From Psammoneis japonica (taxonomy: Eukaryota): DNA of 64,000 nt. The stretch is taken from positions 1 through 64,000 of the forward strand of contig QPGO01000247.1 of the NCBI GenBank assembly GCA_008632985.1. Reading direction: 5' to 3'. This document shows positions 14,735-53,318 of the stretch, in pieces. How positions within the stretch are numbered: the stretch's first letter is position 1; each line of letters begins with the position of its first letter. A model generated the notes under the pieces. The model ran no database searches, was not told where the DNA came from, and saw only the letters and a program-made list of their open reading frames with translations. Both the position numbers and the translations under genes were made by a program.

Positions 14735-14745
14735 TGTCAATTCAA

Positions 14746-14846
14746 CGCTCATTTTTATTTTTTTTCTGGCGATTTTTCTCACCAGTTATGCACGTCGTGT
14801 GTTTCGCGCGCACATCTATTTCTGCGTGCGATCTTCAAAAAAATTG
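14746..14846. mobile_element. Remnant related to the internal sequence of the GAC-TIR MITE family
   Basis: gtcgtgtgtttcgcgcgcacat..ttctgcgtg...aaaaaattg matches ~20932-20980. Confidence 0.55.
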
Positions 14847-20865: not shown

Positions 20866-21263
20866 GACGCGTTCCAGCTCCAGGTGGGACCTCGCACTGC
20901 TGAACTGTGACATGGTTGTTTTTTGTCATCTGTCGTGTGTTTCGCACGCACATTTCTGCGTGTTCTGTTGTAAAAAATTGTTCCACACTGCCTGTTTTGC
21001 AAAGCCAAAGGCTTTCTGTTGTCCCCACATTTGTGACAACAAAAATGTGCTGGGCATGTTCTCCAATGTCTGAAGAACACACCCGGGCATGCTGTGAAGA
21101 GTGCACTTCAAGTGTGGAGGAGGAGACATGTTCGCAAAATTGCCTCTTTTTCTGTTGGCGATCATTCACATGTGCATTGCTCAATGATTTTACTGCAGAG
21201 CTCGCACGCAGAATTCTGCGGGCCCAATGTCACAAAAAGTCCCACCCAGGACCGGAGCCCGTC
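20866..21263 (-). mobile_element. MITE copy A (398 bp), TIR GAC(G/A)nGTTCCAGnnnnAGGTGGGAC, 4-bp TSD acgc/atgc
   Basis: Terminal inverted repeats; TSD with one CpG transition; full-length inverted similarity to copy B. Confidence 0.9.
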
Positions 21264-21640: not shown

Positions 21641-22043
21641 GACAGGTTCCAGCCCCAGGTGGGACTTTTTGTGACATTGGGCTTGCAGAATTCTGCGTGC
21701 GAGCTCTGCAGTAAAATTGCAAAGCAATGGACATGTCAATGATCGCCAACAGAAAAAGAGGCAATTTTGCGAATGTGTCTCCTCCTCCACACTTGAAGTG
21801 CATTCTTTGCAGCATGTCCGGGTGTGTTCTTCAGACATTGCAGAACACACCCAGTGCATTTTTGTTGCCACAAACGCAGATGACAGAAAGCCTTTGGCTT
21901 TGCAAAACAGGCAGTGTGGAACAATTTTTTATGACAGAACATGCAGAAATGTGCGTGCAAAACATGCAGCGGATGACAAAAAAACAACTGTGTCACAGTT
22001 CAGTGGTGCGAGGTCCCACCTGCCGGTGGAGCTGGAACGCGTC
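21641..22043 (+). mobile_element. MITE copy B (403 bp), 4-bp TSD tgtt
   Basis: TIRs; perfect TSD at 21637-21640 and 22044-22047. Confidence 0.92.
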
Positions 22044-23107: not shown

Positions 23108-24310
23108 GGACACACGGCATTTTGTCGCCAATTGCGACATTCCCATAAATGAATTGGACGATTTGTCGTGAATGATGCCCTTTGAGACAAAATTTCAATC
23201 GTTGGCGACAAATGAGACAAAATCATCATTTAATTGGCGATGGCGTGTCCTAAACACAAACGTTGTGTCAACTGCAGTGCTTGATGATGAATTTAACTTT
23301 CGGCGAAGACTGCACTTAACAATTGGTGTTTTGGCGATTTTGTCGCACGTACGACAAATTTTGTCGGATGCGACAAATTTTGTCGGACGTACGACAAATT
23401 TTGTCGTATCCGACAAACCCCGACAAACCCCGACAAACCCTGACAAACGCCGACAACGTACAACAAACGCCGACAAGAGCCGACAAGAGCCGACAAACGC
23501 CGACAGACGGACGTTTGCGACACTGTCTCCACGAGATTCGCCTGCCGCTCGCCAGACTGGCAGAGAGCTGCCGGTGGGCCCTAGCCACCTGCTGACAAAA
23601 GGTGCAGCACAGCAATGCATGCCGGTGCACTCCGTTCCACCATGTAGAAGCGTGCGACATTGTCCCGGCATTGACGAGAGTGTGACATTCGGGGACATGG
23701 AGCGATGATGCAAAATTTCGAAATCAAAAAATTGGAGACCACCGAGAGCGGCATGATCGTCGCTTTGCATCATCGTGCAAAAGAGACACAGTGTCAACGG
23801 AGACATCAGCGGTTGGCGTGTGCGGCGGGGGGTGTGGGTGTTTCGTTCGTGAGTCGTCGTGTCATGACGTGTCGTGACGTGACGTGTCGTGACGTGTCGT
23901 GTCGTGTCGTGTCGTGTCTTGTCGTGTCGTGTCGTGTCGTGTCTTGTCATGTCGTGTCGTGTCTTGTCGTGTCTTGTCGGATGCCGACAAATTTTGTCGG
24001 ACGTCCGACAAACCGACAAAATTTGTCTCGTGCGACAAATTTTGTCGCATCCGACAAATTTTGTCGGATGAAATTTCGTCGATGACATCGATCGCCAAAT
24101 TCTGTTAATTGCCCCACTCATTGAAACGACATCGCCAAAGTGCAGGTTGGTTGTTGATGACATGGGTCATTTTGTGACTCAGTTGAACAATGTTTCTGTC
24201 CCATTTATCGCCAACCCAGACATTTTGTCGCAATTCGCGTCTTTTCGCGACAAATCATCAATTCATTTTTTAAGAAAATGTCGCCAAATGCGACAAAATG
24301 CCGTGTGTCC
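23108..24310. mobile_element. Non-autonomous TIR element, PIF/Harbinger-like, with internal palindrome arrays
   Basis: Perfect TIR GGACACACGGCATTTTGTCGC at both ends; flanking 3-bp CAG duplication; many subterminal CGACAAA/TTTGTCG motifs. Confidence 0.85.
23853..23978. repeat. (GTCGT)n pentanucleotide microsatellite with variants
   Basis: Seen directly in the sequence. Confidence 0.95.
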
Positions 24311-29646: not shown

Positions 29647-30426
29647 TTATTCTTCCTTGGCAACGCCTTCATACTTCTCAGTATCGACGACATCTTCGTT
29701 CAGACCTGCACGTAGCCAACGCATGACAAACCGTGTTTTCGGATCGTCTTCGCATGGGTCTATGAGTTTGAAAAACAGCTTGGCCCGGTACACACACCAA
29801 GCAAGTGTCCCTTTTGCAGGGCAATCATCTACTAGACGGCGAGGCCCAACAAGAGAATGAGGGTACGACGTCGTGAAGGCTCCCGCAGCCTTCACGAAGC
29901 CACTGTTGACAACCATGTGATGACGGAGCTTTCCACCGGGAAACGTCACGAGACTGCCCGCCTTGACAGGAACGGGTTGCTCCGTTCCTTCAACGACAAA
30001 GCTTGCATCCGGGTTAGTGTTCAAAAACAAAAGAACATTGTCTTGGTCTTCGTCTGTGGCTACGAATGAGCCATCCTCTTGAAGCACCCCGTCGAGGTGA
30101 GGTTCGGTTCCTCCCTCGGTCATGGTCTTCACCATGACGTACCTGCCCTCGTATTCGTCGCTGGTGGTACCATGGACAACGCGGTTCAAATTCTGAACCT
30201 GATCCTTCGACAGGAAAGAAGCAGTGTAATGATCGTTCCAATCGAAAGAGGCGGTCTTGGGGGACGACTTCTGATGAGTACGAAGGGATTCAATGTCTTC
30301 GTTTGAGAAGAAATTCTCAAAGACTTTGACACCGCCACTGGAATCAGAGGCACACGTAGGCTCGATGGCAACAACGGCCGACGGGATAGCCGCGGCAAGT
30401 AGGGGGGTGAGGTTCACAAACTTCAT
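29647..30426 (-). CDS. Secreted 2OG-Fe(II) oxygenase/cupin-like protein, 259 aa
   Basis: Intact ORF; signal peptide MKFVNLTPLLAAAIPSAVVA; VFENFFS.ED, HxD (PHLDG), LLFLN, GSLVTFPG..RH; paralog of 14048-14734. Confidence 0.85.
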   Translation of the reverse strand: MKFVNLTPLLAAAIPSAVVAIEPTCASDSSGGVKVFENFFSNEDIESLRTHQKSSPKTASFDWNDHYTASFLSKDQVQNLNRVVHGTTSDEYEGRYVMVKTMTEGGTEPHLDGVLQEDGSFVATDEDQDNVLLFLNTNPDASFVVEGTEQPVPVKAGSLVTFPGGKLRHHMVVNSGFVKAAGAFTTSYPHSLVGPRRLVDDCPAKGTLAWCVYRAKLFFKLIDPCEDDPKTRFVMRWLRAGLNEDVVDTEKYEGVAKEE

Positions 30427-30511
30427 TGTACAGCTCTAAATCGTGAAGATCCTGTGTCCTGTGTACATAGGCTATTGGTACTATGCATGGGATTGTCTCT
30501 GAGATCCCTGG

Positions 30512-30773: not shown

Positions 30774-31212
30774 GAGCCCAAACAGCGTTGGCGCCATTTT
30801 TAAATAATGACATCCAGTAATTAGGAATCAATAAAAATTTTATTAAAACATAAGATTACTAATGTCTATTTTGACTTACTATTGTATTTAGAGAGTGAGC
30901 GTTGGCTGGAGTAGAACGAAACGGAAGAAGTAGCGATTACACAAAAATAAATAATAGTGTGCAAAATTTGAGGTAGAACTTTAAAGTTATTCGTAACTAC
31001 CTACATGTTAATTTCATATCACCTTAATGTACGAAGATATGATATCCTAACTATTTTTTGATGTACTGTACTGGGCATTTTTTTACCTGGTGTGGGCAAA
31101 GCTTTTTGATTAACTCGACTCGAGCGAAGCGAGAGTCAGCACGCCAAAGTAACCCGGATTTGAAAATAGACACAAAACCGCTCTCACACTTGCGTGAAGC
31201 ACCCATGTCACC

Positions 31213-34200
31213 ATGGGCGGAACCGGCAGCGGCGGCAATAGAAAGGGGTCTGGCAGGCCAGTCTCCCACATTAAAGGACAAGGAACTATGTTTGGAGCCA
31301 AGTGTGATCGAAGTGAAGAATTGGCTCGAAAGCAGACTGCTCAGCCGGCGTTGATGGTTGCAGAAGCTCGGCGCAAGCGAGAAGCCGAGCAGCAGAAAGC
31401 AGCAGAAGCGGAGCTGCAAGCAGCCAGAACAAGGGAAAGACAAGAGGCTCTGGAGCAAGAACGTCTTAACAAACAGAAGAGAGAAGAGGAAAAACAAATT
31501 CAGGCACTGGAGAGGCTCACTGCAGCGGCAGATGTTGCGAGAAATGGGTCGGCACCAGGACAGGAGGAAGGCGACGACGACGACGAGGCATGTTTTAGCG
31601 ACAACGATGAAGACTGCAATGAAGATGCTGAAGATGACATCAGTGAAGCAATGAAAAAGAAGCATGAGTCGTCTCGTCATGAGCCACCTCCGGGCTCACG
31701 GCTGTCGAATTGCTTGGAAGGAGTCAAGAATGCCATCAACAGCTCGAGCAACGCAATCGCACGAAAGAACGGTGAGCAGTGGCATCCGCCCGATTTTTCA
31801 GCTGTGTCACTTCCAACTCTTGATCCATTTAATTGGGCAAAAGAGGCTGCATGGGTGTTTCATTTTGATCCATTTGGGCACAATGGGAAATCCACAAGAT
31901 TGGCTCTGAATGAGCACAAATGCATCCACTGCGGCAAGTGTGGCACTCTTGAGTCCAATGGGTGGAGTTGTCGGCCAATGCATCTTTATTTGATCACTTC
32001 TTGGGTTCTTCATCGGAGAATTCATTGCAGAGGAGAGGACAGGAACAAACAGGGGTGTGGCAGAACGTTTGCAGAGTTCCATCCGAAGTTTGTGGCCCAG
32101 TTGCCAAATGTTGTTTCCGAGCGATTTCCGTTTCTCGTCACCGCCAGTGGCATCGGCATGCATGAGTCAATGATGCACCAGTTTCTCCACTCATGTGTGA
32201 AGGGCATGCTGTTTGGCACATGTTGCTCCAGTGTCAATGAACCGAAGCACACGCAATGTTGGAAGGACAATCTTTCACATCTCGATGTGCTTTCCGACAA
32301 GGTGGATGGTCGGGCGGCTTTGTTGTCAGCTGCTGCAGCAACTGACACATTTGTCCCCCAGCCATTCTTTCCCTGTCAGTCTGTGGGTGAATGCAATGGT
32401 GCACTGTCAAAACCACGACTTTTAAAGACGCTCTTTCTACAGGTGCGTGTCGTCTCGGTTGTCACTGTCAACTGTGTGCTGTCATTCTCACCAGCTCTTT
32501 GCATTGCATCTTGTCAGGCAATGTCTGCTCTAGAGCCACATTTTCAAATCAGCCACCAATTGCACCCTGATGAGTCAGAGAGCAGTGATCATTCGTTCAA
32601 ATTCGCGAAGATGATGTCGGCGTCGAAACGATTCGGGAAAGCGTTCCTTGCAACATGTGACTCTGTGTCTCTTAGAGGCATGGTCACCTTCAATCGTTTG
32701 ACCCATGCCAAATCCAATGATGAGTTGAGGCTGCCATTTCAACAGTGCAAAACCGTGAGAATCAACAGCGGAGCTGCCGAACTGAAAAGGGTGGAAGGCG
32801 ATGGTGGTGGTGACCGTGGGTTGTGGCCCGAGGTTTTCAAAGAGCTCCTACAGAAAGTAAGACCTTGGCGAAAGAAGTCTCACAATGGTCTCCCTCAGGC
32901 TTCTCTGGCACGAGACAAATGTGTTGTGTTCTCAACTCACACTGAGGCTCAGAACTGGGCCCTTTCTCTTGCTACAAAAGTTGCTTCTCTCGAGGGTGAG
33001 ATTGTGTGCGGCATCGACTCGGAGTGCAACCTTGATGAAACACGGTCGACAACACGGGCAATCCAGTTGTGCTTTCCGTCTGAGCTCTATGACAAAGTCG
33101 TGATTCTTGACTTGACAGAAATGGGTCTTTTTGATGCATCCGACGTGCCGCCAGCTTTGAAGCACCTTTTGGAAAATAAAAAGCTCGTCCCTGCTGCCGC
33201 GAATGTCTCATTCGACATTGCAAGATGCCAGGCTCTTGGAATCAACATGCTTCGTGCAATTGAAACAATGGAGTTAGCGAAACAGCTGGAGCCGAGTCAT
33301 CCAGAGGGATGTGGCATGCAGAAACTCTGCGCTCGACTTCTTGAGCTTTACGTTGACAAGTTTGGCCAGAACGCAGACTGGAGGGGATTGAAAGACAGTG
33401 ACAGCTTAAAGGAGTGTGCGGCATTGGATCCACATTTACATTTGCAGCTTCGTGTGATGCTGCAGTCACGGATTGCAGATGCAAGGCGGACAGGGAGCAT
33501 GTCAGCATCTGCTCTGTCGGATGGCAAGAACGTGCACCTGACATGTCGCAATCAAGTTTGTGCCACGGGTGAGCTTGTGTTTGTGGGTGGCACAGGTGGT
33601 GAGATTCGGAAGTGGGGTCAAATGACTGTTGGGAAAAACAACAGCATTGTGAAGATCAATCGTGTCATTGTGCGAAGTGTCAGACCGGCGTTCAGCCACA
33701 ATGTTGCTGCAGAGGAGCACACAGCCGGCATCACGGGTTGGAGCCATGCAGAAGTTCTGCTGCATGATGAATTTGAGAAACGCAAAACCTTGGAAGGCAT
33801 GGCAGTTGCATGGCCGACCGATCGTGTTCGTGTGCATTTAGAACCAGCGGCAACTGTCGACTCCGTTGAACCTTCAGCTCGTTCTGATGATGACATGGAT
33901 GATTCGGCAGACGGGGCACCAAGAGACGAACCAGAAGAAGTGGTGGGTGCTGGCGATGGTGGCAATGACATGAACAACATGGTGGATGATTGCTTGGGCG
34001 ATGATGCCACAGGAGAAGCAGTGAATGGCATTGACTCGGAGGCACCGACTGCTGCGGCTGATGCAAATGCGAATGAGTGGCTCTGTGATGCTGGTGACTT
34101 TGAGGACGAGAATGACACTGTTGACCTTCCGAGAACACGTCAATCAATGGATCGGTTCCACGCATTCGACGACATTCCGTCCTCGTCAAATCCCAAAACC

Positions 34201-35773
34201 AAAAATGTGTTGAAGTTGGTTCGTCGATTGGTGATTCAAGCCACCATTGAGTTTGATGCAGATGGCTGGCATGGCATGACGAGATTCCTTGCCGACCATC
34301 GTGGCATTACTTCCATGGAGGACACACTTGACCACTTCTACTTCAACCAAGAATTTTGGCACCAGCGAGTCCAGACACACCCCCCCACCACAAAGAAAGG
34401 AGCTGACAACATTCGTGCTGTCCGGGACATGGTGCAATCTAATCCTGTCCTGAAAGAGTGCTGGAGTTCCAACCTGGAACAATGCTTCGACCGGTTGGAA
34501 GAAATGCACCAGAAAGGTCAACTCGAGGAATCTCGAGATGTGGCAATGCATCAGTGGGACGGCAAGGACAAGTGTGGGTTGAATCTTTGGCTGCATCGAC
34601 GGGGATCAAATCGGTCGGAGAATTTGCATCAGAAGATGCGGGTGGCGTTTGGACCCCATGGCGTTGGTGCAAAGGTGGGGCACTTCTTGCTTCTCCTTGT
34701 CACGTGTTGATGCAATGTCAATGCTGGGGTGCGACGCAGTGGTTTCCATGACTTTGGCATGCCGCATCATGACATTGTTGATCGAGTGCAACTTCGTGTG
34801 ACAAAGTTGTTTGCATGCGATCCATTTCCCCATCACACCAACCAGTTGTTGTTTGAGCCAGCAAAGGATTTTGTTGCGGTTGGTGTGGGGCCATTAAATT
34901 GTGATGCCAAGTTTGTTGAGCACCAAGACTCACCGGATCCCAAGCTCACAGGTGACTTGAAGTTTCTTGCTGGTGAGTGGCACCGTGCATTTCTTGACAA
35001 TGTCGCTCTTGCAAATCTCACAGGAACGTTGCTCGGTCGCACTGGAACACATGAAACTGAGAGGCCCCCTGTTGCACATTAGCCATCCCAATGAAAAGCG
35101 AACACACAATGATTTTCTAAAGGATCACCCAAAACCCACGTGGAAAACGTGGGTTGATTTGGCGAGCTTGTTCAAAATGAAAGCAGACTGTGTCATGATT
35201 TTTCCCAAGCTCCCTTCCATGCTCAAAAGCTGCTGCAACAAGTGGAAAGTCACACAGGAGTTGGTGATGCTCAAGGATTCTATTGGAGTGGACTGCTGTG
35301 GACTGTCAAAACAATTTGCTCGGCCAAGTCGGGAAGAACAGAACAAAAATCCGGCTGCTGTTTTTCAGAAAAATTCCAGCAAGCCCACCTTGGAGACAGC
35401 AGCAAACGTGTTGGAGCAGACCATCACAGAGGCTGCATTTGACAATGATGGTGCCATTTCCACCAACCCAATGCCAGTGGCACCATTGGTTGCTCCCACT
35501 CAAGCCACCTGCATTGTCAGCGCCGACAAGGATGGACGCGGGGCAGACCGACGACGCTGCAGCGCCGCTCCTTTTGGATGCCCCAACCTTGCCAAGGACT
35601 GTTCATGGCGGGGATGGCAACATTGCTCATTGGTCAAACGCAAGAGTGTTCCAGTGAATGTGCCTGACTCAGAAGGGGAACGGAAAAGGTTGAAACGTGA
35701 GTGCGACAAAAAGCGGTTGTCAGAGAGAATGGCAGAACTCAGAAAGAAGAAGGGAGCAGCAAGCAACAAGTGA
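31213..35773 (+). pseudogene. Inactivated DUF6729-like putative transposase containing a DnaQ/WRN-type 3'-5' exonuclease domain; introns 32443-32517 and probably 34973-35045
   Basis: CxxC...H.R..C zinc motif, SSDHSFKFAK, exonuclease motifs CGIDSE / NVSFD / CAALD, DRFH, RGSNRSENLHQKM; in-frame TGA at 34708; GT donors with ctcac branch points. Confidence 0.7.
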
Positions 35774-36280: not shown

Positions 36281-37093
36281 CAGGTGAACCGAGCCGGATC
36301 GGATCGCCAGATCGACTCCTTCATGACCCATTAAAACATCAGTCCATCGAGTCAAAAAGTCGATCCGTGGCCTTCGTGGGACTGATCCGCCATCTCGGAT
36401 CGGACGGTCTTTGGAGCAAAACATTTTGCTCCGAAGACCGTCCGATCCGAAAATCCGGATCGGATGTCGGCTCGAATTTGGAAGATTCCGTGCCGTCATC
36501 ATGACAATGGCGCAACATCACACGATTGTGACACAGGGTGGCACAACATTCAGCCATGAGGGCACAGAACTTCCTTGGCATTGCAGCCTTGCTCTTCCCA
36601 TGCTTGAAATGGAGATGAAAAAGGTCGCATGGCAACAGAATGGCTTGTCAAACCGACAATGCCGTAAAGATTTGTTGGAGAAACATTGAACAAGCAAAAC
36701 AACAAGTGTTTGTCACGCAATTCGAAATTTCAATGCGAAAACATGGTGTCAGTTTCTGAGTTGCAAAAGTGATGGCTTTTTCTTCCTTGGTGTGCTGCAA
36801 ACACTGAGTGACAATGATGCTCAATGATGCGGTCAAGTGAGCATGCAAAGCAGCAACGTCAGCATGGTTCTGTCATCACATTGTCTCGTTGTGACAAGAT
36901 GTGAAGCATCACAGCCACACTCTCTCTGTTGTTCGCTGCTGCATTTCAGTGCTTTGTTGTTCTTGAGAATTTGGAATCTTGAAACTTGCGTCGTTTTGCG
37001 ACTCATCAAAATGTCGAATCCTGTCTGCGATCCGATCCGGTTCCACCTGTCGACTAACGGAATTCTGACGTGATCCGATCCGGCGATCCGATC
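36281..37093. mobile_element. Probable non-autonomous TIR element with GATCC/GGATC-rich ends; right end abuts the Ngaro-like element
   Basis: caggtgaaccgagccggatcggatcgcc at 36281 versus gatccgatccggttccacctg (~37029-37050) and gatccggcgatccgatcc (~37076-37093). Confidence 0.5.
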
Positions 37094-37348
37094 CTCCTCG
37101 CACCCAAGTTTAGATGGAGACGTGCTGTGCGACGCAAGACTCCCCAACTGACCAGACCTTGGACTCATGCCTCTTCCAGAAGCGGGCACTTCTGGACCAA
37201 GATGGCCGGTCACAGTGACCAGTCAAATCTGTCAGCTGTTTGCTTTTCACTTTTCCATCTTTGTTGAGACAGGAACCCTGATCAACGTGACTGGATCATT
37301 CCAAAGCACTGGAAAAGCTTCTTTTTGCTCCCTCTCTCGCTCTCGCTC

Positions 37349-40214
37349 ATGTCTGACTGCTTCTCTTCCGGGCTCGACGACGCCACTTTTGTCAACCTCG
37401 CTCGCACGCTCGAGATGGATGTTGTTTCTCCATTCTCGGCGCAGTCTCCTTCGTCGTCTGCTCCTCGGGCCCCGCCGTCTGCGATGGGTCATCAAGGGGG
37501 GCTGGCGGATTTGAACCCTTCCCTCGGGGGGTTAAATCTGGGTGGTGTGACCGATGACATCGGACATTCGGACATTGAGCGAGTGGAATTGGGGGAAGTC
37601 TCTTCCCCTGACCCGGGTGACGGGTTCCAGTCCCAGGTGGGACTCCGTGTGACATTGGGCCCGTAGAATTCTACGTGCGAGCTCCGTAGTACGAGAATTT
37701 AATTGATGGACACATTTGTCTTCAACATCAAATAAACTGCCAAGTTTGTGGCACAATTATGCCTCTTGCCACTCGACGTTTTTGCAAATGCGCCTGCCCT
37801 GCGCGATTCTTAAGACATTGTAGAATCGCGCTGTAACAAAAAATGTCAAAAGTTGTTGGACGGATCGCTCAATAAGTGCACCGTAAAATGACACAAAATG
37901 TCGAAAAAATCACGTAGAAATCTACGTGCGCGACATGCGACGTGATTCAAAAAACTGTCGATGTCACAGTTCAGCAGTGCGAGGTCCCACCTAGACCTGG
38001 AACGCGTCGGGTTCGGCTTTCAATGCCCTGCCATCTAGAGCAGGCGAGGGTGCGGAAGAGCGTGCACCCCGTGTTGATTTCTTCGCGCCAAAAGATGAGG
38101 GAGCACCCCGAGGTGCCTCAGGAGCGAAGGAGGAAGGTGCGTCTCCTTCGTCTGATGCACCTCGTTTTCATGTCGTTTGGATGGAGGGCACCGATGACTC
38201 TCGCTGCATGGGGGTTGTCGGAGGAGGTGCCACTTTTTGTTTCAAGAAAGCCACGGACTGCAAGGTCAAGCACAAAGGCTCCAAAAAGGTCCTCCCTTCT
38301 AGCGGCATGGTGTTGATTCTGAAGACACCAGACACAGCGTTTTGCCAACCAACGTTGGACGGATCGTTTGTGTCGGCGGATTTGTTGGTAAAATGGGAAT
38401 CCACTGCTGATGCCATGGCGGGATGGTGCCAGAAATTCCTTGTTCTGTCAAACAGCGAAACCAACTGTCCAACCGAAGACGAGTTCGGTGCCTCCTTGAA
38501 GGAGCACAAGGAAGCAGCCGCTTGCAAGACCCCAGCCAAGAGGAAAGACCCCCTTGACGAAAGTTTCCCGGGCCCATCGTTGGCCCGATTCTTGCCTCAT
38601 AAGCCAGTGATCTCCACCACCCCATCCCAGTTCCTTGCAGCGAACAAGAGCCCGGCTGCCTTGGCTCGCGTGGTCCAATCCCTTGAGCGGAGCATGATGG
38701 AGACGGGCGAGATGGTCACTGACTTGGGATGCAAGGCCTGCGGTCGGTTCAAGGAGACGGACTCACTTGTCAACGTGCTGAGCAGAAAGCTGGAGCAGCT
38801 TGATGCTTCCCTCGGTTCACCTCCACCTGAATTTGACCAGCGCGTGGAGGCTCCGACAATTTGGGGTGCACTCGCCAACCTGACAACCGTCGATGTTTCA
38901 AGTCGACACTCCTGGGACTTCTCGTCCGAGTTGTCGTGCATGGAGAGCAGCATTCGGGCTGGTTCCAACACACTGGCATCGAACGTTAACGCCACAGTTC
39001 AGGGTTTATGAGCCCAAATGTCTGGGCTGGCTGCGAAGCGGGACATGGACTCTCTAAGAGCCGGGGTGTTGAGAGTGTGCAATCAGCTCGTGGTTAGAGT
39101 CCAAAACCTGGAGAACTCCGGAGTTCCTGGCACGACAGGCCTGGGTGGGGCCTTGGGGACTGGAAACTCTGGATCACTTGAAGACCAGGTTCGAGACCTC
39201 GGCCAAGCTGTGAATGAGTTGAAGTCTGAGTCTGACTCATCGGCAATCAAGTTCTCGGGAGTCGGAGCATCGTCCTTTGGGGAGTGCCAGGCCTGGATGG
39301 TCCAGCACTTCTCGTCAAGAGTGCATGGTTGTCTCACGGACGCCAACCTGCTCTTGGACCAGATTGTGGGCACCGAGCCCGCAGCACTCCACCATTTTTT
39401 GGCAGGCTTGTCAAAGCGCATGGATTTGAAGATTGGCACAGAAGAGGACGCGAGAACTCTGGCAAGCTTCCAGTGCAGCATGCCGAGGATCCTCGATTCG
39501 GGCTCGGCGAAAGGTGCCCAGTCGCCTGGTCTGCATCCTTCATTCCTGGACAAGGTCCCGACGCACGACCACTGGACGACTGGGTCAATGGGGACCAAAC
39601 ACTTCATCATGGAGAAGATTGGCACAATCGAGACGAACACGTTGAGTGACATTGCTCAGAGAATCCCAGGCGGATCGTTCGAGGGACAGGTGGTTCAAGA
39701 TGCGCTGTCTAAGTTGGTGGCCTTCGTTCGCGGATTGATCCAATTTATGGACGAAACACACGAAAACTTAGTCCAGCTGAGCAAGTTCTCACACAAGCAG
39801 GCGTGGTCTTTGTCATCAAAGCTGGTCCACCGTATTTTCGACGACCTCAACCAGGTTCGGTCTGGGGTTTTTACTTCAATCACGGGCACGGATCCGGACG
39901 CAGTGTGCAGCCAAATCCTTTGGGTGGTTTTTCGAGTGCAGGATGTGATGGCGGAGCACACGGCCCCAAACTTTAGGGACCACCCATCGATGGCCTCAGA
40001 GCATGTCAAATTCCTTGCAACAAATTCCGGATTCGAAGCAGCAACGGCACTTCAAGCTGCAGTGGCTATGTTGACCGACAAGGCAAAGAACGCGGGGACG
40101 GAGGCAAAGTCGGCGCAGGCACGAGTGGATGCGGCCCATCAGGAGGTCAACAAGTTAAAGACGGAGCTGAAGGAGGTGAACAGGCGTCTCAAGGCGTTAG
40201 AAACCAAGAAATGA
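37349..40214 (+). pseudogene. ORF1 (gag-like) of the YR retroelement, interrupted by MITE C and by an in-frame TGA at 39009
   Basis: Removing 37619-38012 fuses frames 37349 and 38181; Cys/His cluster C...C....C...H; coiled-coil C-terminus. Confidence 0.8.
37619..38008 (+). mobile_element. MITE copy C (390 bp; same TIRs, different interior), 4-bp TSD gggt, TpA retained
   Basis: TIRs; TSD at 37615-37618 and 38009-38012; excision restores the gag frame. Confidence 0.95.
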
Positions 40215-42663
40215 AACCCAATGGGGGAGGAGTCACCACCGGAGGAAAAGACAGGGCTTGTCATTCGCGGTCGCAAAGCATTTTCTTTCCACGGATCTTG
40301 CCTGATTACATCTGCCAGTCCCCCCACTTGGCTTCTGGCCCTGAGGTGCTCCGAATGGCCTCGTGTTGTCTTGTGTTGCGGTGATGATCCACCATCCCCG
40401 TTGACCAGAGTTCTAAAACTAGTGACGTCGTGTTCATCTCTGGAGACCCTGGATTTTTGGAAAGGATCTCACGGTTGGAATGCAAATCTCCGATGTGCTT
40501 GGTTCCGGTCGGACAGTTTTCAAGACGTAGCTTGAAGGGACTGCACCACTTGTCTCATGCCACCTTCACCCATGCGGGAGTTGGAGGTGTTGCGACATTT
40601 CACACGTCCTTTTTGAGCATTGGTGCATCGCTCCCGGACTCGACTCGAGGGTTAGACCGAACCATCGGCCACATTGTCGACTGCAAGTTGGAGGGACTCC
40701 CGACTTCCCCGGATCCCTCGGGTTTGGTCTATGAGGAGAACGACCGGTTGAGTCCTCAGAACACTGGACGACCCGTCTTGTGCCAATCGCATCGTTCATC
40801 AACGGGGTGGGTCCTGCGGAAATTGAGCGGGGATGATCTCCTTGCCGCGTGGGATTTTCCTCTTCGATTTCGGACCCAGGATCTGTTGGATTTGACATCT
40901 GGTGACAGCTTGAGATTGCCAGTGCCTCTCAATCTTCTCACCACTGTCACGGACCATTTTATTGCACTGCGCTCAAAGGGCATGTCCCACGCCTCACTTC
41001 CGGTCCCTGGGCCCACATCAAGCATGGTCTTTGCCCCGGCAACTGCCACATGGTTGCCTGGTTTGGGGCAACACCTGTCGCATGACTGGGCAGATCTGAC
41101 TCTCATTGCGGCCAAGGCGGCGAAAGGGGATTCCGCCCTCCCGCCATTTCGGCTGTGGGACAAGCGTGTCACCCTCTTGTTCCCAATGTTTGGACCGGTG
41201 CTTCCAGCTCTTTGGGTGCCAGCCCTGCGGTGGTGGCGTCGGCAGCTCACGCACTTGTTCTTGGCACATTTGCGGAGGTGTCATGGCCCTGGATGGGCAC
41301 TTCGCCCAGCAAACTGGCGCCTCCAGTTTGGGGACTCATTGTTGAGTCATCGGGGGGGGCCATGTCGAGACCCACCGCTCCCTCCCTTGTTGTTGGACGG
41401 CAACCTCGGCGCGGATGTTCTCACTCAAACCCTGGCATGTTCGTGGTGGAACTGGGGCCAGGGGTCTTCCCTTTTCTTTTGGCGCTGGCCCTCGTCCGAA
41501 CAACGTCGGGCCGCTCGGGATGGGCTCCCCATCTTCGTACGAGGAACCCTCCCCAGGAATCGCCAGCGGCAATGCATCCGGGGCTCAACCAGCGAAGTTC
41601 AGCGGATGGCAACCAAAATTCAGAAGGTCCGGGACCATGGGTGCATCAAGGTTGGTCCAGTGACAAGTCTTGCCGACCATTTCTGGGCACCTGAGGTGGT
41701 GTCTCTGATCCCAGGTCCCGACGGGAGGATGGAGGAGGTCGTGGAAGACATCAGGATGGTGTGCAACGGCACCTCGTCTGTGCTCAATGACGCCCTCTGG
41801 GCCCCTTCCTTTTTCCTTCCTGCTGCGGCATCGGTGTTGGGGTGCATGACCGACGCAACCTTTTCCATTGATTTGGACCTTGGGGACATGTTCCCAAACT
41901 TTTTCATGGACCCTCGAATTCGCCCATACGCCGGAATTGACCTGTTGCTGTTGCGCACTCATCTCCCCCGTCCGGTGTCTAATGAACCTCCAATCGGCGT
42001 GGAGCGTTGGAACCGTCTCTTTATGGGGATGAAACCTGGCCCTTGCAACGTGGTGCGGTCCCATCACTGGGCGGACGAGGTGGCTCGGGGAGACCCCAGC
42101 TGCCCGGGAAACCCAATGGGGTTTGACAAAGTGTTGCTCAACCTGCCAGGGGATCCTGACTGCAAGGTCCAGGACCCTCATGTCATCAAGTGGAACTCAA
42201 CCTTGGGGATCATTGCCGGAGACATTAAGACCTTTGTTGATGACTTGAGAGGCATGGGTGCCAGTGAAGAACAAGCCTGGCAGGTGGGCCATCAAATGGC
42301 GTCCAGGCTCCAGTGCTTCGGCCTCCAGAATGCTCCTCGAAAGGTCCACCCCCCATCGCAGTGAGAGACGGGTGCCTGGGCGGGGGCAATTTTTCGCGTG
42401 CTTGGTGCAGAAGTCATGCAATCACTCTCACAGGCCAAGTGGGACAAGGCCAAGGGCATGATCGAGACTCTTTTGAGTCACTTTGACGGGATGGACGAGC
42501 TCGCCACCCCTGACTTCGACTTCAAGGATCTCGAGAGGAAACGGGGATTTCTGGTTCATGCAGCCATGACTTGCCCTTTCCCAACCCCCTTTCTTAAAGG
42601 GATTCACCTGACTTTGGACAGTTGGCATCCGAACCGCAAGGCAGATGGATGGGCCATGTCGGG

Positions 42664-42940
42664 TGACAGGATTTGAACAGGATTTAGGTGCGCGCGAAGC
42701 ATCGCGCGCTGTTTAGTTTACCGCGCACAGTTTTGTGTGCTTTAGTTCCGCGCGTTCACGCGCGATGTAGTTTGCTTTCGAGCCACAAGGCTCACAAGAA
42801 CAACAACAGTAGCCCGATTGTGCCGACTCACACGTCTTTCGGCTCCTGTGACGGTCTCTGAGCGGAGACTCATCTGCTGTTTAGACAGCAGCAAGGAGTT
42901 GTTGTTTGAATTCTTGCCATTTGCCTTCATTTTTCTGTCA
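42664..42940 (+). repeat. 5' LTR
   Basis: Matches 49494-49770 with 10 mismatches, all transitions. Confidence 0.97.
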
Positions 42941-43880
42941 GATTAACAGTCTTGCTCATTGTCAACCCATTGAGCAACCGCCATCGTCGTCGTTGATTTA
43001 CCAACGATGCCATTTTTAATTCTGCGTGGACCTCCGTACACATTCTACATACATCGGCAAGTCTACGCGCATTCAATGCCAGGGCATCGGCAGGAAGTTA
43101 ACGTCACCGTCAAGTCTCCTTACCGCTGGATGTCTGGATTGATCATGCCACCTTTGATCACTGAAGACATGCATTCAACGGTCATGTCCAAGTCTGTCCT
43201 TGATCCTCATCCCTTGATGCACCTGTTCATCGGTTGACGGTCAAGAACCCTGCACATTCAAGGATCTTCGTCTCTGACGACATGTGCACACACACATGTC
43301 TTCACGGCCAAGAACCTGTGCCCACTCTTCGGACTGCGGTTTTGCTGCCACTCTACAAGCACACCGAGTCCATTGCACCTGATCTGCCCCGGACTGCTGG
43401 TGCTCTACAGTTCTGCTGGGTCCACGAGGACAACTGTGAGAGCAAGCAGCCGTGATCACAGCCTGCGTTGGGGCGAGGGTGCTTTCCCGCGTTTGTTCGT
43501 TCGTCCACAGCGCCCAACGCCTACGTCAACTGGCCAGCCTGATCGGGAAATCCAACCGACATAAAATGAGAACGGTTCGGGGGTCTTGTCCACCTCTGGT
43601 CAGCTTGCCTGCAGGGGTTTACAACCCGCTACTCCGCTCGTAAGCAACCCAAAGCGCCACCAGCTGCGGGTTCGGACGTGCCGGCACAACTCTACGGACC
43701 GGACAGGAAGTTTAGCACTCAACAACGAACGGGATAACAAAGCCCGGCGACTTCTGATTTTAAGACAGTTCAAGATTTCAAGTCAAGTCCATTTCAAGTC
43801 AAGTCTGTTCTCACCCAAGTTTCGAGTCTACCTTCGCTTCCCAACCAGAATTGATTGTCCTGACACCATTTTTGTCTGCC

Positions 43881-46800
43881 ATGGTTCTCACTCGTCAGCA
43901 ACAAACCGATGGTTTCGAGCACGTGGTTGGAACCGTGCTTGCCCAAGGTGCTGGGAGTCCTCTTCGTTTGGCTTTGGCCCAAGACGGCACGGACTCACAT
44001 CAGGAACTGTTCACGTTCATGCCATCCCAAATCGACTCGCTTGAGCACGACAACGGCACTAATGTGATCCCTTTGCCCCGTGGTTATAAGAACATGTTAG
44101 CAGCACCAGTCAGTCTGTACATTGTTAAAGCACACAAAGGTCTTGACGTTGCCAACGACTCCTCTTTGTTCACGCATGACGAGTTCCTTGCCTGCCGCCT
44201 CAGCCCCGACTGCATGTCTTCTGTGTCCATCGGCAGCTCACCCCTTGCACCTCCACATGTCACCAACCCGACCAAGGCACGCGACCCGGTGCGGGACTTC
44301 AAGCGAGGCATCAAGCGTGATCCCACCGCTTTCACGGCTCTCAAATCCGACAAGCAGTGGCACACTTGGCACACCTCACTTGTGGCACAAGCCCGTGCCC
44401 AAGACGTCGAGTGCATTCTAGACTCGTCGTACAAACCGACCAGCCCCGAAGACAAACTGCTCTTTGCTGAACAGCAAAAGCACATGTTCGCCGTCTTCGA
44501 ATGCATCCTTCTCACCGACAAGGGCAAGGCTCTCATTCGCGAAAATGTGGGGTCTTCTGATGCACAGACCGTCTGCCGCTCCTTGTCTGAGTGCGCGCTT
44601 GCCTCCACCCGCGCATCTGTCGAGTCCTCCACCCTGCTCACGTACCTCACCACCGCGCGTCTTGGTGATGGCACTTGGAAAGGTCCGACCCACGGGTTCA
44701 TCCTTCATTGGCAAGATCAGTTGCGCAAGTGCGAGGCACTCATCCCGGCCAATGACCACTTCTCTGAAGGACAGAAGCGCGTCATGCTCGAGAATGCCGT
44801 GCACCCTGTCGAGGAACTCCGTGCTGTCAAGAGCCAAGCTGATCAGCATCGTACGCAGAGTGGCAAGAGCCTCACATGTGATCAATGCTGTGGCTTGCTC
44901 CTCTCCGCGGCAGCTCAGTGCGACAGCACGTTTCAACCCAAGACGACACCTCGAGCTCCCCGACGCGCCACACACGCACCCGATGTCTGCTCCGAGGAAC
45001 CGTCCGACGATGTGTTCTACGACATTGACAGCGACGTTGACGTCCTTCAAGCCAATGCTGCCTGCACCCGCGGTCCCAGCCTCACCGGTGTCCAATGGAG
45101 ACGTCTCCCTCCCGACCACCAACGGCTCTGGGATTCGTTGCCCGATTCCTCCAAGGCGATCATCCTTGAGCATTCTCGTCCACCTCCCCGCAACCCGCGA
45201 GCCAGCAACTGCCATGAGTCTGTTACGGCCAACCTTCACGACCAACGCCTTGGGAGTGACGGTGATGTCCACTTCTCCAACATGACTCCTGCTGACTCTG
45301 GTGACTCCGCCCCACATGTGGACGCCACTTCGGACAATCCCATCCTGGCGCACCTCACCAAGCGCAAGCCACTGCCACCCGGTGATCTGCAACGTCTGTT
45401 GTCTCCTAACCAAGCCCCCAATGCCAGTCGACCGGGGCCATCCGCCGCTTCCTCTACCCCGCCAGCTTCTGCAGATAACATGGAACTTAACGGCCGCACT
45501 TGCCGCCGCGTTGACAACCACAATGTCATTTGCTCTGCCTCTGCTCATCGATCCACACGCACTGGCGCTCCAGTCGATCGTGGGGCCAACGGCGGCATTG
45601 CTGGCGACGACGTTCGCGTCATTGCACGCACCTCTCGCCAAGTCGACGTTCAGGGCATTGACGATCATCAATTGGTGGACATCCCCATTGTCACCGCTGG
45701 TGCCGTTGTTGAGACCCAGCGTGGTCCTGTCATCGCCATCCTCCATCAGTGCGCATGCACGGGAAAGGGCAAGACCATCCATTCCTGCGGCCAGCTCGAA
45801 TGGTGCAAACAGGATGTCAACGATCGCTCTGTCAAGGTGCCCAACGGCTTGCAACGTGTTGCCACTCCTGATGGCTATGTCATCCCCATTGACATCAAGG
45901 CTGGCCTGCCTTATGTTGCCATGCGACCTTACACTGACGCCGAATGGGACACCCTGCCCCATGTCATCCTCACCGGTGATGACACATGGGACCCTTCCGT
46001 CCTCGATCACTCTGTCACTGACGACGACCAGTGGCACGACGCGATCTCTGACCCACAGGACGATCCCACTGCCAACCTGTTTGACGAATGCGGCAACTGC
46101 CGTCATCGTGTCGTTGTCAATGAGACCATCTTGTCCGCTTCCTTGTCTGCCGATCACGCGTCCGCCCTCGATGATCACCTCATTCCGAACGACGACGTGT
46201 TCTACGAGTGTCATCTGCATGCGATTGCCCCCCAGGGCGATGACGTTCCACCTCCGGAGCGCACTGTACAGCCCAAGGACCCCCCCTTCGAGTCTCTTCG
46301 GCCTTGCTTTGGCTTCCTGCCTGCCGATACGGTCCGCCGTGCTTTTGACTGCACCACGCAGTGCGCCCGCATGCCCGCCGGCACACACCTTCGCAAGGCC
46401 TACAAATCACCCAACCCCGCCCTTAATGTGCACCGCCGCAACGAGCCCATCGCCACTGACACCGTTTGTGCCAACACCCCGGCCGTCGACTCTGGTTGCA
46501 CCAGCGCCCAACTGTTTGTTGGCACCGAGTCTACCGTCACTGACGTCTACGGCACTAAGACGGACAAAGAGTTTGTCAACACACTCGAGGATCAGATCCG
46601 TGCATGTGGTGCCCCATCCAAACTCATTAGCGACCGTGCTCAAGTTGAGATCAGCAACAAAGTGCTCAGGATCCTGCGCGCCCTCTTCATCTCTAGCTGG
46701 CAAAGTGAGCCTCACCAGCAACACCAAAACTTTGCCGAGCGTCGACACCAGACCGTGAAGCGCATGGCGAACACTGTCATGGATCGTTTTGGTTCGCCCG

Positions 46801-49546
46801 CCCACACATGGCTGCTGGCGCTCATGTGCGTGTGCTTCACACTCAACCACCAGCGTCCCCACGTCTCCACTGGCGCATGCCCCTCGAGACTCTCACTGGC
46901 TCCACCCCGGACATCAGCCCATTGCTTCGCTTTCACTGGTGGGAACCCGTGTACTTCCACCTCGATGACTCTGATTGGCCGTCTGAATCCCGTGAGTTGC
47001 GTGGACGCTTCGTTGGCATTGCTGAGCACGTCGGCCACCAGATGACCTTCAAGATTCTATCTGACGAGACTCAGAAGATCCTCTGCCGGTCCAACGTCCG
47101 CTCCGCTGCCCCCGATCCTGCCGTTCGAAACCTGCGTCTTGATCCTCCTGATGGGGAGCCACCTGAACCCATCATCAATCTCGCCATGACGACAACCCCG
47201 TCGACTCTCCTGATGGGGAGATCAGGACACCCAAGATGCCAGTTTTCGATCCGCAAGACATCATTGGACGTACCTTCCTCATGCAGCCACAAGAGGACGG
47301 ACAACGCCACAGAGCTCGCATCGTCAAGGCCGTCGAAGACCACGAATGGAAAGTGAACGGCAATCCCGAGCTCACTAAGTTCGTCTGCTCTGTCAACAAT
47401 GACGAATACGAGGAAGTCCTTGCCCACAATGACATCATGAATCACATTGAGCAAGAAGACGAAGACACCACTGTTTGGAAATTTCGATGCATCGTGTCAC
47501 ACGAAGGACCTCTGAAGCCTCACGACCCAACCTGGAAAGGCTCCAGCTACAACATCATGCTTGAATGGGAAAGTGGGGAGATCACGTCCGAGCCTCTTGC
47601 CATCATCGCCAAGGACGACCCCGTCACCTGTGCCATCTATGCACGAGAGAACGGACTCCTCGACACGGATGGCTGGAAGCGGTTCCGCACCATCGCGAGG
47701 CGCCAAAAGAAGCATTTCGCATGGCCAACCAAGCCAAGCTTCACTCCTTCCGCACTGCACCCCGCCACAAGCATGGATGCGAAGTTCCCCGCAACTACAA
47801 ACACGCCATGTCACTAGACGAACGCAACGGCAACCGCAAGTGGGGAGACGCAACCAATCTCGAGATGGACCAACTCGACGAATACGAAGTCTTCCATGAC
47901 TGCGGGCCCTTCAAGTCTTCCACTCCTCCTGCGGGACACAAGAAGATCCGAGTGCACCTGGTGCACGATGTGAAACACGACGGTCGCCACAAGGCACGAC
48001 TCGTAGCCGACGGGCACCTCACGGACGTACCTATCGACAGTGTCTACTCCGGAGCAGTCTCCCTCCGTGGCCTTCGGCTGATGATTTTCCTGGCCGAACT
48101 CAACGAGTTGGAGACATGGGCCACCGACATTGGCAATGCCACCTTGAAGCCACCACCAAGGAGAAGCTTTACATTGTAGCTGGACCCGAGTTCGGCAAAC
48201 TCGAAGGACACATCCTTGTCATCCACAAGGCACTGCATGGACTGCGCAGCTCCGGTCTCCGCTGGCACGAGCGCTTCGCCGACTGCCTGCGAGCTGAAGG
48301 CTTCTTCCCCTGCCGCGCCGAACCCGACATTTGGATGCGCAGGAACGGCGACCACTGTGAATGCATTGCCGTTTATGTGGATGACCTCGCCATTGCCATG
48401 AAGGACCCTCAATCTTTCGTCGACACTCTCACGGAAAAGCACAAGTTCAAGCTCAAGGGTGCGGGACCCATTGAGTTCCATCTGGGTTGCGACTTTTCCC
48501 GGGAACCCGACGGAACCTTGTGCCTGTCTCCGCGCAAGTACATCGAGCGCATGGTCGACAGCCATGCCCGACTGTTTGGGGAGAAACCTGCCACCAACGC
48601 CCTGTCACCTCTAGAGAAGGGTGACCACCCCGAACTGGACACTTCCGAACTGCTGGGACCCGATGGCATTCACAAGTTCCAGTCTCTTGTTGGTTCACTC
48701 CAATGGGCAGTGTCTCTTGGTCGAATTGACATTGCCACGGCCGTCATGTCACTCTCTAGCTTCCGAGCTGCGCCCCGTCAAGGCCACTTGGATCGTGCCA
48801 AACGCGTCTGTGGGCACCTCTCCAAGATGCGACACGGTGCTCTCCGCGTTCGTACGGAAGAGCCCGACCATTCGGATCTCCCTGCTCCGGCCTATGAATG
48901 GATGCATTCCGTGTGTGGTGAAGCAGAAGAGATGATCCCGAAGGACGCTCCACCGCCCCTTGGCAAGTTCGTCACTGCCACCCACTACGTCGATGCAAAC
49001 TTGCACCATTGCATGCTCACCGGACGCTCTGTCATGGGAATGCTCCACTTCCTCAACAAATTCCCGGCTGATTGGTTCTCTAAGAAACAAGCCACCGTGG
49101 AGACTGCGACCTACGGGTCTGAATTTGTTGCCGCAAGGACTTGTGTTGAGCAGATTGTCGACCTGCGCATCACCCTGCGCCACCTTGGCGTCCCGATCCG
49201 CAACGTTAGTTACATGTTCGGTGACAACAAGTCGGTTGTAGACAGTGCCACCATCCCGCACTCCAAGTTACACAAGCGACACACCGCACTGTCGTTCCAC
49301 CGTGTGCGTGAGGCAATTGCCTCTGGTTGCCTTGAGTTCCACTTCATCGAAGGCTCCCGCAACCCTGCTGACATTCTCAGCAAGCATTGGGGTTGCTCCC
49401 AAATCTGGGACCTTCTCCGCCCCCTCATGTTCTGGAACTTCATTCCATCCGAAGTCGAATCTGTTTCTGTGGCTCCTCAAGCAAACTGGGGAGTGACAGG
49501 ATTTGAACAGGATTTGGGTGCGCGCGAAGCATCGCGCGCTGTTTAG
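43881..49546 (+). pseudogene. Copia gag-pol with frameshifts near 46850, 47190, 47710 and 48140
   Basis: DFKRGIKRD gag; VDRGANGG protease; ISDRAQVE...SEPHQQHQNFAERR integrase; KARLVADGH, YVDD RT; DNKSVV, NPADILSK RNase H. Confidence 0.93.
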
Positions 49547-49770
49547 TTTACCATGCACAGTTTTGTGTGCTTTAGTTCCGCGCGTTCACGCGCGATGCAG
49601 TTTGCTTTCGAGCCACAAGGCTCACAAGAATAACAACAGTAGCCCGATTGTGCCAACTTACACGTCTTTCGGCTCCTGCAACGGTCTCTGAGCGGAGACT
49701 CATCTGCTGTTTAGACAGCAGTAAGGAGTTGTTGTTTGAATTCTTGCCATTTGCCTTCATTTTTCTGTCA
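49494..49770 (+). repeat. 3' LTR
   Basis: Preceded by the PPT and followed by the TSD. Confidence 0.97.
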
Positions 49771-50929
49771 TCGGGTGAGGAACACGCATCGTGGATTCAT
49801 CATGAGGCGGACAAGTTTGGCATCGACCCATGTGAGCTCGCTGATGCTCTTCGACACGGCAAACACCCCGAGTCGGTTCGAGCTGTGCCTCGTTTGTTGG
49901 GGGACTTGAAAGCACTGCAACGAATCCTGGAGCCCGACAAACCAACGGCCAGGGTCATCCGATCGTCTAAAGTGGCAGTGGTTCTGTGCGGATTTGCCGA
50001 TGCATCTGGAAAAGGTCTAGGATCCTCGGTTCAGACCAAGGACGGCGCAATTGTGTTTCGGATTGGCGTCTGGGGCAGTGACGACCAGTCCAATTCTTCG
50101 AACTGGAAGGAGCTGTCAAACACGATCGACTCCATTCATGAGCTGGCTGAGGCCGGCGAGCTTGATGGGGCCACTCTCTACTTTTTTATGGACAACTCCG
50201 TTTCGGAAATCGCCGTGCATGAGGGGACCTCATCTAACCCGAGGCTCCTGGAACAGGTGATTCGGTTAAGAGCGCTCGAGGCCTGGTGCGGCTTCACACT
50301 GCACCTCACACATGTCTCGGGAAAACGGATGATCGCCCAGGGCACAGATGGGGCATCACGTGGTGTCCTGACCAAAGGGGTCATGAACAGGGCTAGAATG
50401 CTTTCTTTTGTTCCCCTGCATCTTGCCGCGACGGAGCGAGCCCCCCCTTTTTGAGTGGATACACTCCTGGGCGGGGTCGCCTCCAGCAGAGCTGTTGTCT
50501 CCGCTGGACTGGTTCCAGAAGGGGCATGACATCTCAGGTTGGGACCACCCTCCTTTCGAAGCAGTCGAGATGCCCTTGTTTTGGTCTGGAACTTGGATTT
50601 GGGCACCCCCCCCAGCTGCGGCCAGAGCGGCCCTCGAGGAACTGCGGATTGCACGTCTCAAGCACCAGGAATCGTTTCACATTTTCGTGTGTCCTCGACT
50701 CATGACACCCGAGTGGCAAAAGCAATTGCGTGAAGCTGCGGACCTTGTGTTTTTGGTGCCGGCCGGAGCCGGGCCGTTTTGGCCCGTCGAGATGTTTGAA
50801 CCCCTTCTCATCGGCCTTGTTTTTCCGTTTGTCTCTCACAGCCCTTGGCAGCTCCGAGGAACCCCAAAGATGCACTCAATGGACCGGACACTGCGAAGAG
50901 TGTGGGAGGATGCTAAAGTGGACGCGAGG

Positions 50930-52409: not shown

Positions 52410-53318
52410 GTCACGTTCCTCGACTTGTCTCGACTGTTCATTCCTCGAGATTTTTCCTTTCAGGTGGCCACTGCCCGGGAGTTCTCATCGGGGGGGATTT
52501 GAGCTCAGCTTTGCTGGTGCGACCACGGGAGTCTCCTGGTGAAGTCTAGAAGGTTTCCTCCTACGATCCACTCTCAACGACGCGCTCCTGCGGAGTCACA
52601 ACAATTGCGTCTGGCATTGCCTTCGACTCCGGTTCGAGACTCACCTCTTGCGGGGCACCGACGTCGCGCAATGCCAAAGGCACCCCGCACTGGGCTCAGC
52701 CGGAAGCGCCCGGAGCAGTTCCCAGTGGGTTCCATTCATGAGCCCTCGAGCTAGACTCGAGACCCTGCGGAGGGCATGGGTGTCACCCAACCCCCCTTGT
52801 GCGGAGCAGAGTGTCACCGAAAGCTCTGCTCTGTGAGTCTCCTGAGTGTTCTAACACCAAGTTGCTTCTCAGTGGTTCTTGGCTCGGCAGTCTAAGTCTG
52901 GCCCAGATTGGAGTCGGTGCCGCACTGTTTCAAATCCTCCTCACACCCAAGTTTAGATGGAGACGTGCCGTGCGATGCAAGACTCCCCAACTGACTAGAC
53001 CTCAGACTTGTGCCTCTTCCAGAAGCGGGCACTTCTGGACCAAGATGGCCGGTCATGGTGACCGGTCAAATCTGTCGGCCATTTGCTTTTCACTTTTCCA
53101 TCTTTGTTGAGACAGGAACCCTGATCAATGTGACTGGATCATTCCAAAGCACTGGAAAAGCTTCTTTTTGCAACCCACCCACCACTCCCTGGATTTGAGC
53201 TCAGCTTTGCTGGTGCGACCACGGGAATCTCCTGGCAAAGTCCAGAAGGTTTCCTCCTGCGATCTGCTCTCGACAACGCGCTCCTGCGGAGTCACAACAA
53301 CTGCGTCTGGCGTTGCCT

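Follow-up and report, generated by a model that had tools for sequence, protein, structure and literature searches.

Why does a short transposable element still carry TpA dinucleotides when the DNA around it has lost most of them? The question is raised by the first 64,000 nucleotides of contig QPGO01000247.1 of Psammoneis japonica (assembly GCA_008632985.1), hereafter called the window, over which the observed to expected ratio (o/e) of TpA is 0.16 and that of CpA/TpG is approximately 1.5. The element is a miniature inverted-repeat transposable element (MITE), here called copy C, that splits an open reading frame (ORF) of its host DNA; two relatives in the same window, copies A and B, have been almost emptied of TpA by conversion to TpG or CpA. 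The original prediction held that C was a later insertion which had not been converted and which could serve as an internal control for a cumulative or episodic process. The analysis presented here leads us to conclude, with a probability of roughly 0.6, that C is a late but already partly converted insertion.

Copy C and its insertion site

The limits of C coincide with those originally predicted. The following features were located in and around it:

37349..39011, + strand: host ORF split by C, TpA o/e about 0.1, no known family
37615..37618: left copy of the target-site duplication GGGT
37619..38008, + strand: MITE copy C, 390 bp
37619..37643, + strand: 5' terminal inverted repeat of C, 25 nt
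37659..37678: subterminal palindrome of C, containing TAGAATTCTA
37911-37929: second, imperfect copy of the palindrome in C
37984..38008, + strand: 3' terminal inverted repeat of C, 25 nt, with a TA at 37992
38009..38012: right copy of the target-site duplication GGGT

The arms of the terminal inverted repeats are 84% complementary over their 25 nt and lie at the exact ends of C. Excision of C together with one copy of the duplication (394 nt) restores a single 422-codon open frame in the host ORF, and the other two downstream frames then contain 8 and 15 stops. C is short, present in high copy number and non-coding, its longest open frame being 53 codons, and it has inverted ends in common with A and B, features that together place it among the MITEs. 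The target duplication is of constant length, at 4 bp in all three copies. Duplications of 4 bp are uncommon where the target is not TTAA; Sola, Ginger and Academ elements produce duplications of 3-5 bp. No transposase domain and no autonomous partner turned up among the ORFs of the window that were given profile scans. Metagenome scans using the two conserved MITE ends returned 0 loci and 4 loci, the latter being chance matches to the pattern alone.

Retention of TpA in C

C contains 15 TpA where 27.3 are expected (o/e 0.55), with a CpG o/e of 1.30. The 1-kb flanks of C contain 4 and 6 TpA (o/e 0.07 and 0.12), or jointly 10 against 108.4 expected, and the contrast between C and its flanks gives a conditional binomial p = 1.5e-5. 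A blind search for clusters of TpA returned an island at 37664-38036, which coincides with C. The prediction that C retains TpA within depleted DNA was therefore borne out, and the contrast shows that TA loss follows history rather than a regional composition rule. Twelve of the 15 TpA kept by C are followed by a pyrimidine (5'-TAY), the context found below to be the sensitive one, so their survival cannot be put down to the local sequence.

Relatives A and B

Copies A and B lie close together, some way upstream of C:

20862-20865 and 21264-21267: 4-mers GCGT and GCAT flanking A, a duplication with one CpG-to-CpA change
20866..21263, - strand: MITE copy A, TA-erased, 2 TpA
21637-21640 and 22044-22047: target duplication TGTT of B
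21641..22043, + strand: MITE copy B, TA-erased, 2 TpA

Since each has its own 4-bp duplication, A and B are separate insertions, 377 bp apart, and the spacer between them (about 375-377 nt) contains 0 TpA. They share 86.7% identity, and have TpA o/e values of 0.08 and 0.07 with CpG o/e values of 0.52-0.59. Both are richer than their flanks in CpG but equally poor in TpA, indicating that TpA loss outpaces CpG decay. That A and B have been converted supports the conclusion that the MITE family is not immune to conversion.

C aligns well with A and B over only about 75-100 nt at each end, at 85% identity, and the interiors have diverged so far that they can barely be aligned. C is therefore a member of a different subfamily that shares only its ends with A and B, and not, as first supposed, a later copy of their own element. 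For this reason, only six columns of the alignment at which C has TA and both A and B have CA or TG are safe (76, 84/85, 99, 346, 354/355 and 430). At 37664, 37672 and 37687 C has TA; A (taken on the reverse strand) and B have CA, TG and CA there, and the palindrome is TAGAATTCTA in C as opposed to CAGAATTCTG in A and B; on these points the initial reading of the sequence was correct.

Direction and timing of the change

Pairs of direct repeats elsewhere in the window provide a record of the process that is separate from the MITEs. The relevant copies are:

37091..37328 (+), 52934-53171 (+) and 53595-53742 (-, partial): 238-nt repeat, the first copy adjoining the host ORF upstream
42659-42663 and 49771-49775: 5-bp duplication TCGGG of the nested copia element
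42664..49770, + strand: nested Ty1/copia element with TG..CA long terminal repeats (LTRs) of 277 bp that are 96.4% alike, and an RVT_2 domain

Three pairs, comprising two LTR pairs and the 238-nt repeat, differ at a total of 30 places: 8 are TA versus CA/TG, 9 are CA versus TG, 12 are CG versus CA/TG, and 1 is of another kind, such that 29 of the 30 fall at steps from a pyrimidine to a purine (YpR). Copies of the 238-nt repeat differ solely at YpR steps, by CA/TG double changes or CG changes. In the copia LTR pair (42664/49493), 5 TpA are kept in both copies and 5 in one only, and 1 site reads CA in one copy and TG in the other. LTR copies are identical at integration, so the five TA-versus-converted sites and the double site arose at that locus, 5 kb from C. 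Conversion thus took place in the inserted DNA after its insertion.

Within the element, A and B differ from each other by 11 CA-versus-TG doubles (which could equally stem from a CG ancestor), 8 exchanges of CG with CA/TG, and 15 other differences. A CA/TG pair is one step from a YpR ancestor, be it TA or CG, and its two members are two steps from each other, which indicates that A and B were converted independently after they split. Because of these 11 doubles, and because the commonest form of the family has TA at the palindrome (see below), the data support a change that ran from TA to CA/TG and not the reverse. The same change of TpA to TpG or CpA is seen in the repeat pairs and in the comparisons of A with B, of C with A and B, and of C with its family, with CpG changes alongside.

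Where TpA has been lost, the combined o/e of CpA and TpG is 1.7-2.1. CA and TG are balanced at the kilobase scale, so both strands were hit. Editing of one strand, at an RNA or cDNA stage, was considered and dropped, as almost no part of the window shows a skew between CA and TG at that scale.

Sequence context and the symmetry of the palindrome

The choice of strand was examined at sites with a known ancestral TA at which the base following the A (position +1) differs between the two strands. In 15 of 16 informative cases the converted A was the one that precedes a pyrimidine. The TpA that survive in old DNA point the same way: in 42 of 59 the A is followed by a purine on each of the two strands (TTAA, CTAA/TTAG or CTAG), against 35 of 224 in the gene-like islands described below (p = 7e-16). 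Among the 59 survivors, taken from the converted parts of 1001-29000, 21 are TTAA and 20 are CTAA/TTAG. In the repeats at 32-62 kb the corresponding figure is 73 of 186 TpA.

With a preference for a pyrimidine at +1, GTAG is turned into GCAG and, on the complementary strand, CTAC into CTGC, so that a palindrome stays a palindrome without selection or a cruciform. The symmetric outcome seen in A and B, to which the original prediction had drawn attention, needs no special explanation.

Graded loss across the window

Loss of TpA is far from uniform. At 1-13 kb, 15-23 kb and 24-29 kb the TpA o/e is 0.01-0.09 and the CpG o/e 0.06-0.45, with CpA+TpG near 1.9. By class of sequence, the values are as follows:

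Old DNA: TpA o/e 0.03-0.04, CpG o/e 0.15-0.19
A and B: TpA o/e 0.07-0.08, CpG o/e 0.52-0.59
Host of C: TpA o/e 0.13-0.14, CpG o/e 0.71-0.72
Third LTR element: TpA o/e 0.17, CpG o/e 0.87
Nested copia: TpA o/e 0.28, CpG o/e 0.93
C: TpA o/e 0.55, CpG o/e 1.30
Gene-like islands: TpA o/e 0.57-0.68, CpG o/e 1.03-1.07

The gene-like islands are spared relative to the repeats, in which the TpA o/e is 0.03-0.28. Both of the proven nested insertions, copia and C, exceed their host in TpA. Loss is graded with the order of insertion and is in that sense cumulative; over the nested insertions it is consistent with a cumulative or repeated process that acts in several steps and is not all-or-none. The suggestion of a cumulative or episodic process, made before this series was available, is to that extent in agreement with the succession from old DNA (0.03-0.04) through the host (0.13-0.14) and copia (0.28) to C (0.55).

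C is itself partly converted

Contigs were taken from the single sample that contains the stretch (4 runs, one study, none of them listed as RNA) and placed at a likeness of at least 80%. Over C their summed depth is 1.4-3.3e5, compared with about 50 in the unique flank, a summed depth that is not equivalent to a copy number. Loose contig ends with unlike flanks begin at 37618/37619. Together, the depth and the loose ends show that the family is very abundant and confirm the left boundary of C. No joint of 37618 to 38013, as expected of an empty-site allele, was found among these contigs. One contig links 37616 to 38094 (skipping 477, side 25, depth 28.8), and may be a paralogue of the host of C.

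At 8 of the best 11 variant places in C, beyond which there are a further 221, C has CA or TG and other members of the family have the letter that makes TA (37705, 37711, 37713, 37718, 37752, 37801, 37900 and 37937); against a chance rate of 0.14, p = 1.9e-5. The TA-making letter accounts for 28-75% of the family depth at these eight places, and the CA/TG states of C are found in 25-72% of it. Three small sequencing runs were able to assemble only the commonest form of the family. Across 37705-37752 and at 37937 their contigs all carry the TA-making letters, which also make up the majority of the depth at 37801 and 37900. The same contigs match C at the TA sites of the palindrome, so TA is the common state of the family there. 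C departs from this commonest form almost solely at TA sites.

The inverted ends of C give a further case, since the 5' end has CA at 37636-37637 and the matching TA is intact in the 3' arm. In all, at least 8-9 of some 23-24 TpA are gone from C, or roughly one third, which is similar to the estimate of about 0.37 per copy that the copia LTRs provide. The claim that C has not been converted does not hold: at eight or more places it has CA or TG where the commonest form has TA, in addition to the one in its own inverted ends. C is a marker that has been less exposed, and it cannot be taken for an untouched control, as it had already lost about a third of its TpA.

Proposed history of C and alternative explanations

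The following history would account for these observations. C would be an insertion of fairly recent date, made by an inverted-repeat MITE of 390 bp that is very abundant, and would have entered a coding frame of a repeated element after conversion to TpG and CpA had already removed about 85-90% of that element's TpA. C itself has parted with about one third of the TpA that it once had, whether on site or in the source copy. The process acts on either strand of a TA step, mainly on an A that precedes a pyrimidine (5'-TAY); a deaminated A in this context would be read as G, which leaves TG on its own strand and CA opposite, and a step once converted to TG or CA would no longer be a target. It would return repeatedly to silent or repeat DNA and spare gene islands, and CpG in that DNA decays at a slower pace. 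Deamination of A on DNA is the most likely reaction, although the sequence alone also allows a T-to-C change on the opposite strand. TadA/ADAT and ADAR enzymes prefer a U or T 5' of the edited A, and bacterial TadA edits the A in U-A-C, a target comparable to the TAY preference of the present data; an enzyme of this kind would, by inference, act on nuclear DNA here. It is possible, though we hold the idea only tentatively, that an adenine deaminase active on DNA, and like TadA in favouring 5'-TAY, serves as a standing genome defence that revisits silent DNA repeatedly.

Several points weigh against this history. The CA/TG states of C may have been inherited from a partly converted source instead of being acquired on site, and the relative youth of C is the presumed cause of its retained TpA, all contigs coming from one sample. 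No contig spans either junction of C by 31 nt, the best extending 28 nt into C. The five palindrome sites common to A and B perhaps represent one inherited event, and when they are counted once the strand-choice result is 10 of 11 (p = 0.012); the ranking of contexts was also partly prompted by the same palindromes, although the survivor test does not depend on them. As for the chemistry, a TadA/ADAT-like enzyme that carries out A-to-I deamination of DNA is put forward as a proposal. Finally, TA loss is patchy within copia, at 0.10-0.51 per 500 bp, and tract limits unrelated to age therefore exist.

This patchiness keeps alive an explanation in which conversion is directed in tracts by guides or homology, as repeat-induced point mutation (RIP) is to duplicated segments, such that the host was targeted and the embedded MITE was not, whatever its age. 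Sharp edges between TA-rich and TA-poor DNA do coincide with the ends of C, and in copia the LTRs and 5' part (o/e 0.5-0.9) differ from the interior (0.10-0.26) in the way that tracts would predict. The MITE is itself among the most repeated sequences in the contig placement, however, and a sensor of repeats should detect it; A and B were converted along with non-homologous flanks and a spacer without TpA, and C is partly converted. We regard directed tracts as unlikely. The high CpG o/e of C (1.30) and its palindromes might instead suggest that it is old and was shielded by its sequence, structure or chromatin state. This we consider improbable, since A and B have the same ends and palindromes and are fully converted, 12 of the 15 TpA that C has kept are in the sensitive TAY context, and C, whose differences from the commonest form are nearly confined to TA sites, appears young when judged by ordinary substitutions.

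The very high copy number of the family, the breaking of contigs at the ends of the element and the reliance on a single sample also leave room for an artefact of assembly or polishing, or for ectopic gene conversion, by which C would have been pulled towards the consensus of thousands of copies and its true converted state hidden. Yet C is not the commonest form, differing from it in at least 9 places, including 37738 at which 91% of the family depth has another letter, and A and B have not been homogenised. Moreover, a contig at unique depth (50) runs across 37299-37646 with one difference. Such an origin of the retained TpA is very improbable. The late insertion of C, followed or preceded by partial conversion, is the reading that we prefer.

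The host ORF and other features of the window

The host ORF had been labelled a gag gene. No Gag or zinc-knuckle domain was found in it, nor any homologue, nor LTRs and a reverse transcriptase (RT) of one element around it, and the label was not retained. The part at 37995-39011 matched none of the Pfam families, even with E allowed up to 10; a homologue search over 5832 candidates and an atlas search were blank as well. Paralogous contigs cover it at several times the unique depth, which indicates that the host belongs to a repeated element. Contig depth over the adjoining 238-nt repeat suggests tens of genomic copies. An outer LTR retrotransposon bounded by the 238-nt repeats was considered and rejected, as these have neither TG..CA ends nor a duplication.

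The only RT domain found in the scanned ORFs of the window, RVT_2, belongs to the nested copia element at 42664-49770. Scans of the repeat-region ORFs yielded only this domain and a 3'-5' exonuclease domain (DNA_pol_A_exo1, E 4.4e-10), the latter in a 1170-codon open frame at 31198-34710 (+) in TA-poor DNA. An integrase and a protease are expected upstream of a copia RT. The 1093-codon frame in that position (43764-47045, +) matched nothing in Pfam, even with E allowed up to 10, a blank result that may be due to blurring by TA conversion. An assembly gap at 57009-57892 (884 N) lies inside the third LTR element, and there is a single N at 30731.

A 1.2-kb element at 23107-24311 has 43-nt inverted repeats at its ends and arrays of a 10-nt satellite inside. 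Its CpG o/e is 1.49 and its TpA o/e 0.18, within DNA of CpG o/e 0.15-0.19, and it looks like another later insertion, in which TpA was lost ahead of CpG. Tandem duplications at 14847-15146/15223-15522 and 10986-11343/11341-11698 are 99-100% identical and lie within the most converted DNA; they are very recent copies of old sequence. Two paralogous ORFs of 245 and 262 aa, at 14048-14785 (-) and 29647-30435 (-), are 68-78% alike at the DNA level and sit in TA-rich islands with normal CpG. They had no Pfam match, and an atlas search with a gene-like island ORF placed viral 2OG-Fe(II)-oxygenase-like clusters nearest (0.91). These are probably real genes that were spared by the process.

Relation to known systems and significance

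The process resembles RIP of Neurospora and other ascomycetes in its dense, dinucleotide-biased transitions in repeats, its cumulative rounds, the decay of transposons and the use of LTR and copy pairs as a record. RIP, which is premeiotic and senses duplications, turns CpA into TpA by C-to-T changes and so creates TpA, whereas here TpA is depleted and CpA/TpG enriched, the opposite of the RIP signature. Deamination of 5-methylcytosine in methylated transposons would fit the sites at which LTR copies, or A and B, differ by CG versus CA/TG, as well as the CpG o/e of 0.15-0.19 in the oldest DNA. It accounts for CpG loss only, and TpA loss is faster (0.07-0.08 for TpA in A and B, compared with 0.52-0.59 for CpG). 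Short, non-coding, high-copy elements with inverted ends and target duplications are familiar from studies of MITEs and nested insertions, where, as here, nesting orders events. Methylation of transposons in diatoms is described in part of an earlier report (PMC9998398).

The closest parallel is found in an unrelated alga, Bigelowiella natans, whose integrated DNA of giant viruses and virophages undergoes TpA-restricted hypermutation, as described in passages of a preprint by Mettrop et al. (bioRxiv 10.64898/2026.01.13.699255). There, the changes arose de novo in some, but only some, mutation-accumulation lines, at a rate about 1000-fold above background, and are thus not constitutive; TadA/ADAT (ADAT2-like) and ADAR are proposed as candidate enzymes. 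That only 1 of the 30 repeat-pair differences in the present window falls outside YpR steps is an indirect hint of a raised rate here. Both systems change TpA to TpG or CpA depending on the strand, in the direction from A:T to G:C, are confined to foreign or repeat DNA, and leave a clustered, long-term footprint in which TpA is scarce and CpA+TpG abundant. The Bigelowiella evidence consists of new mutations in lines and of viral integrants with a TpA Rho of 0.45, while ours comes from repeats. In P. japonica, unlike the cases covered in that part of the preprint, erasure is nearly complete (o/e 0.03) across tens of kilobases of transposon-like DNA and CpG decays too, and the passages concerned make no mention of a +1 context preference. 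In the literature searched, no TpA erasure was reported for diatoms or other stramenopiles, and this preprint (10.64898/2026.01.13.699255) was the sole description found. What is added here is the partial conversion of a "control" copy, a series of nested insertions and the rule for position +1.

A mutator of this kind, which removes TpA from transposons, mirrors the action of RIP in fungi, and the rule that the hit strand has a pyrimidine at +1 narrows the search for the enzyme. A high-copy MITE provides thousands of dated probes of the process, with the caution that a copy chosen as a young, unconverted control may already be one third converted. If a recurrent deaminase defence does operate in this alga, each transposon insertion would bear a clock of TA loss, nested MITEs such as C would date its rounds, and a comparison across every copy of the family could reveal whether these match rare events such as sexual reproduction.

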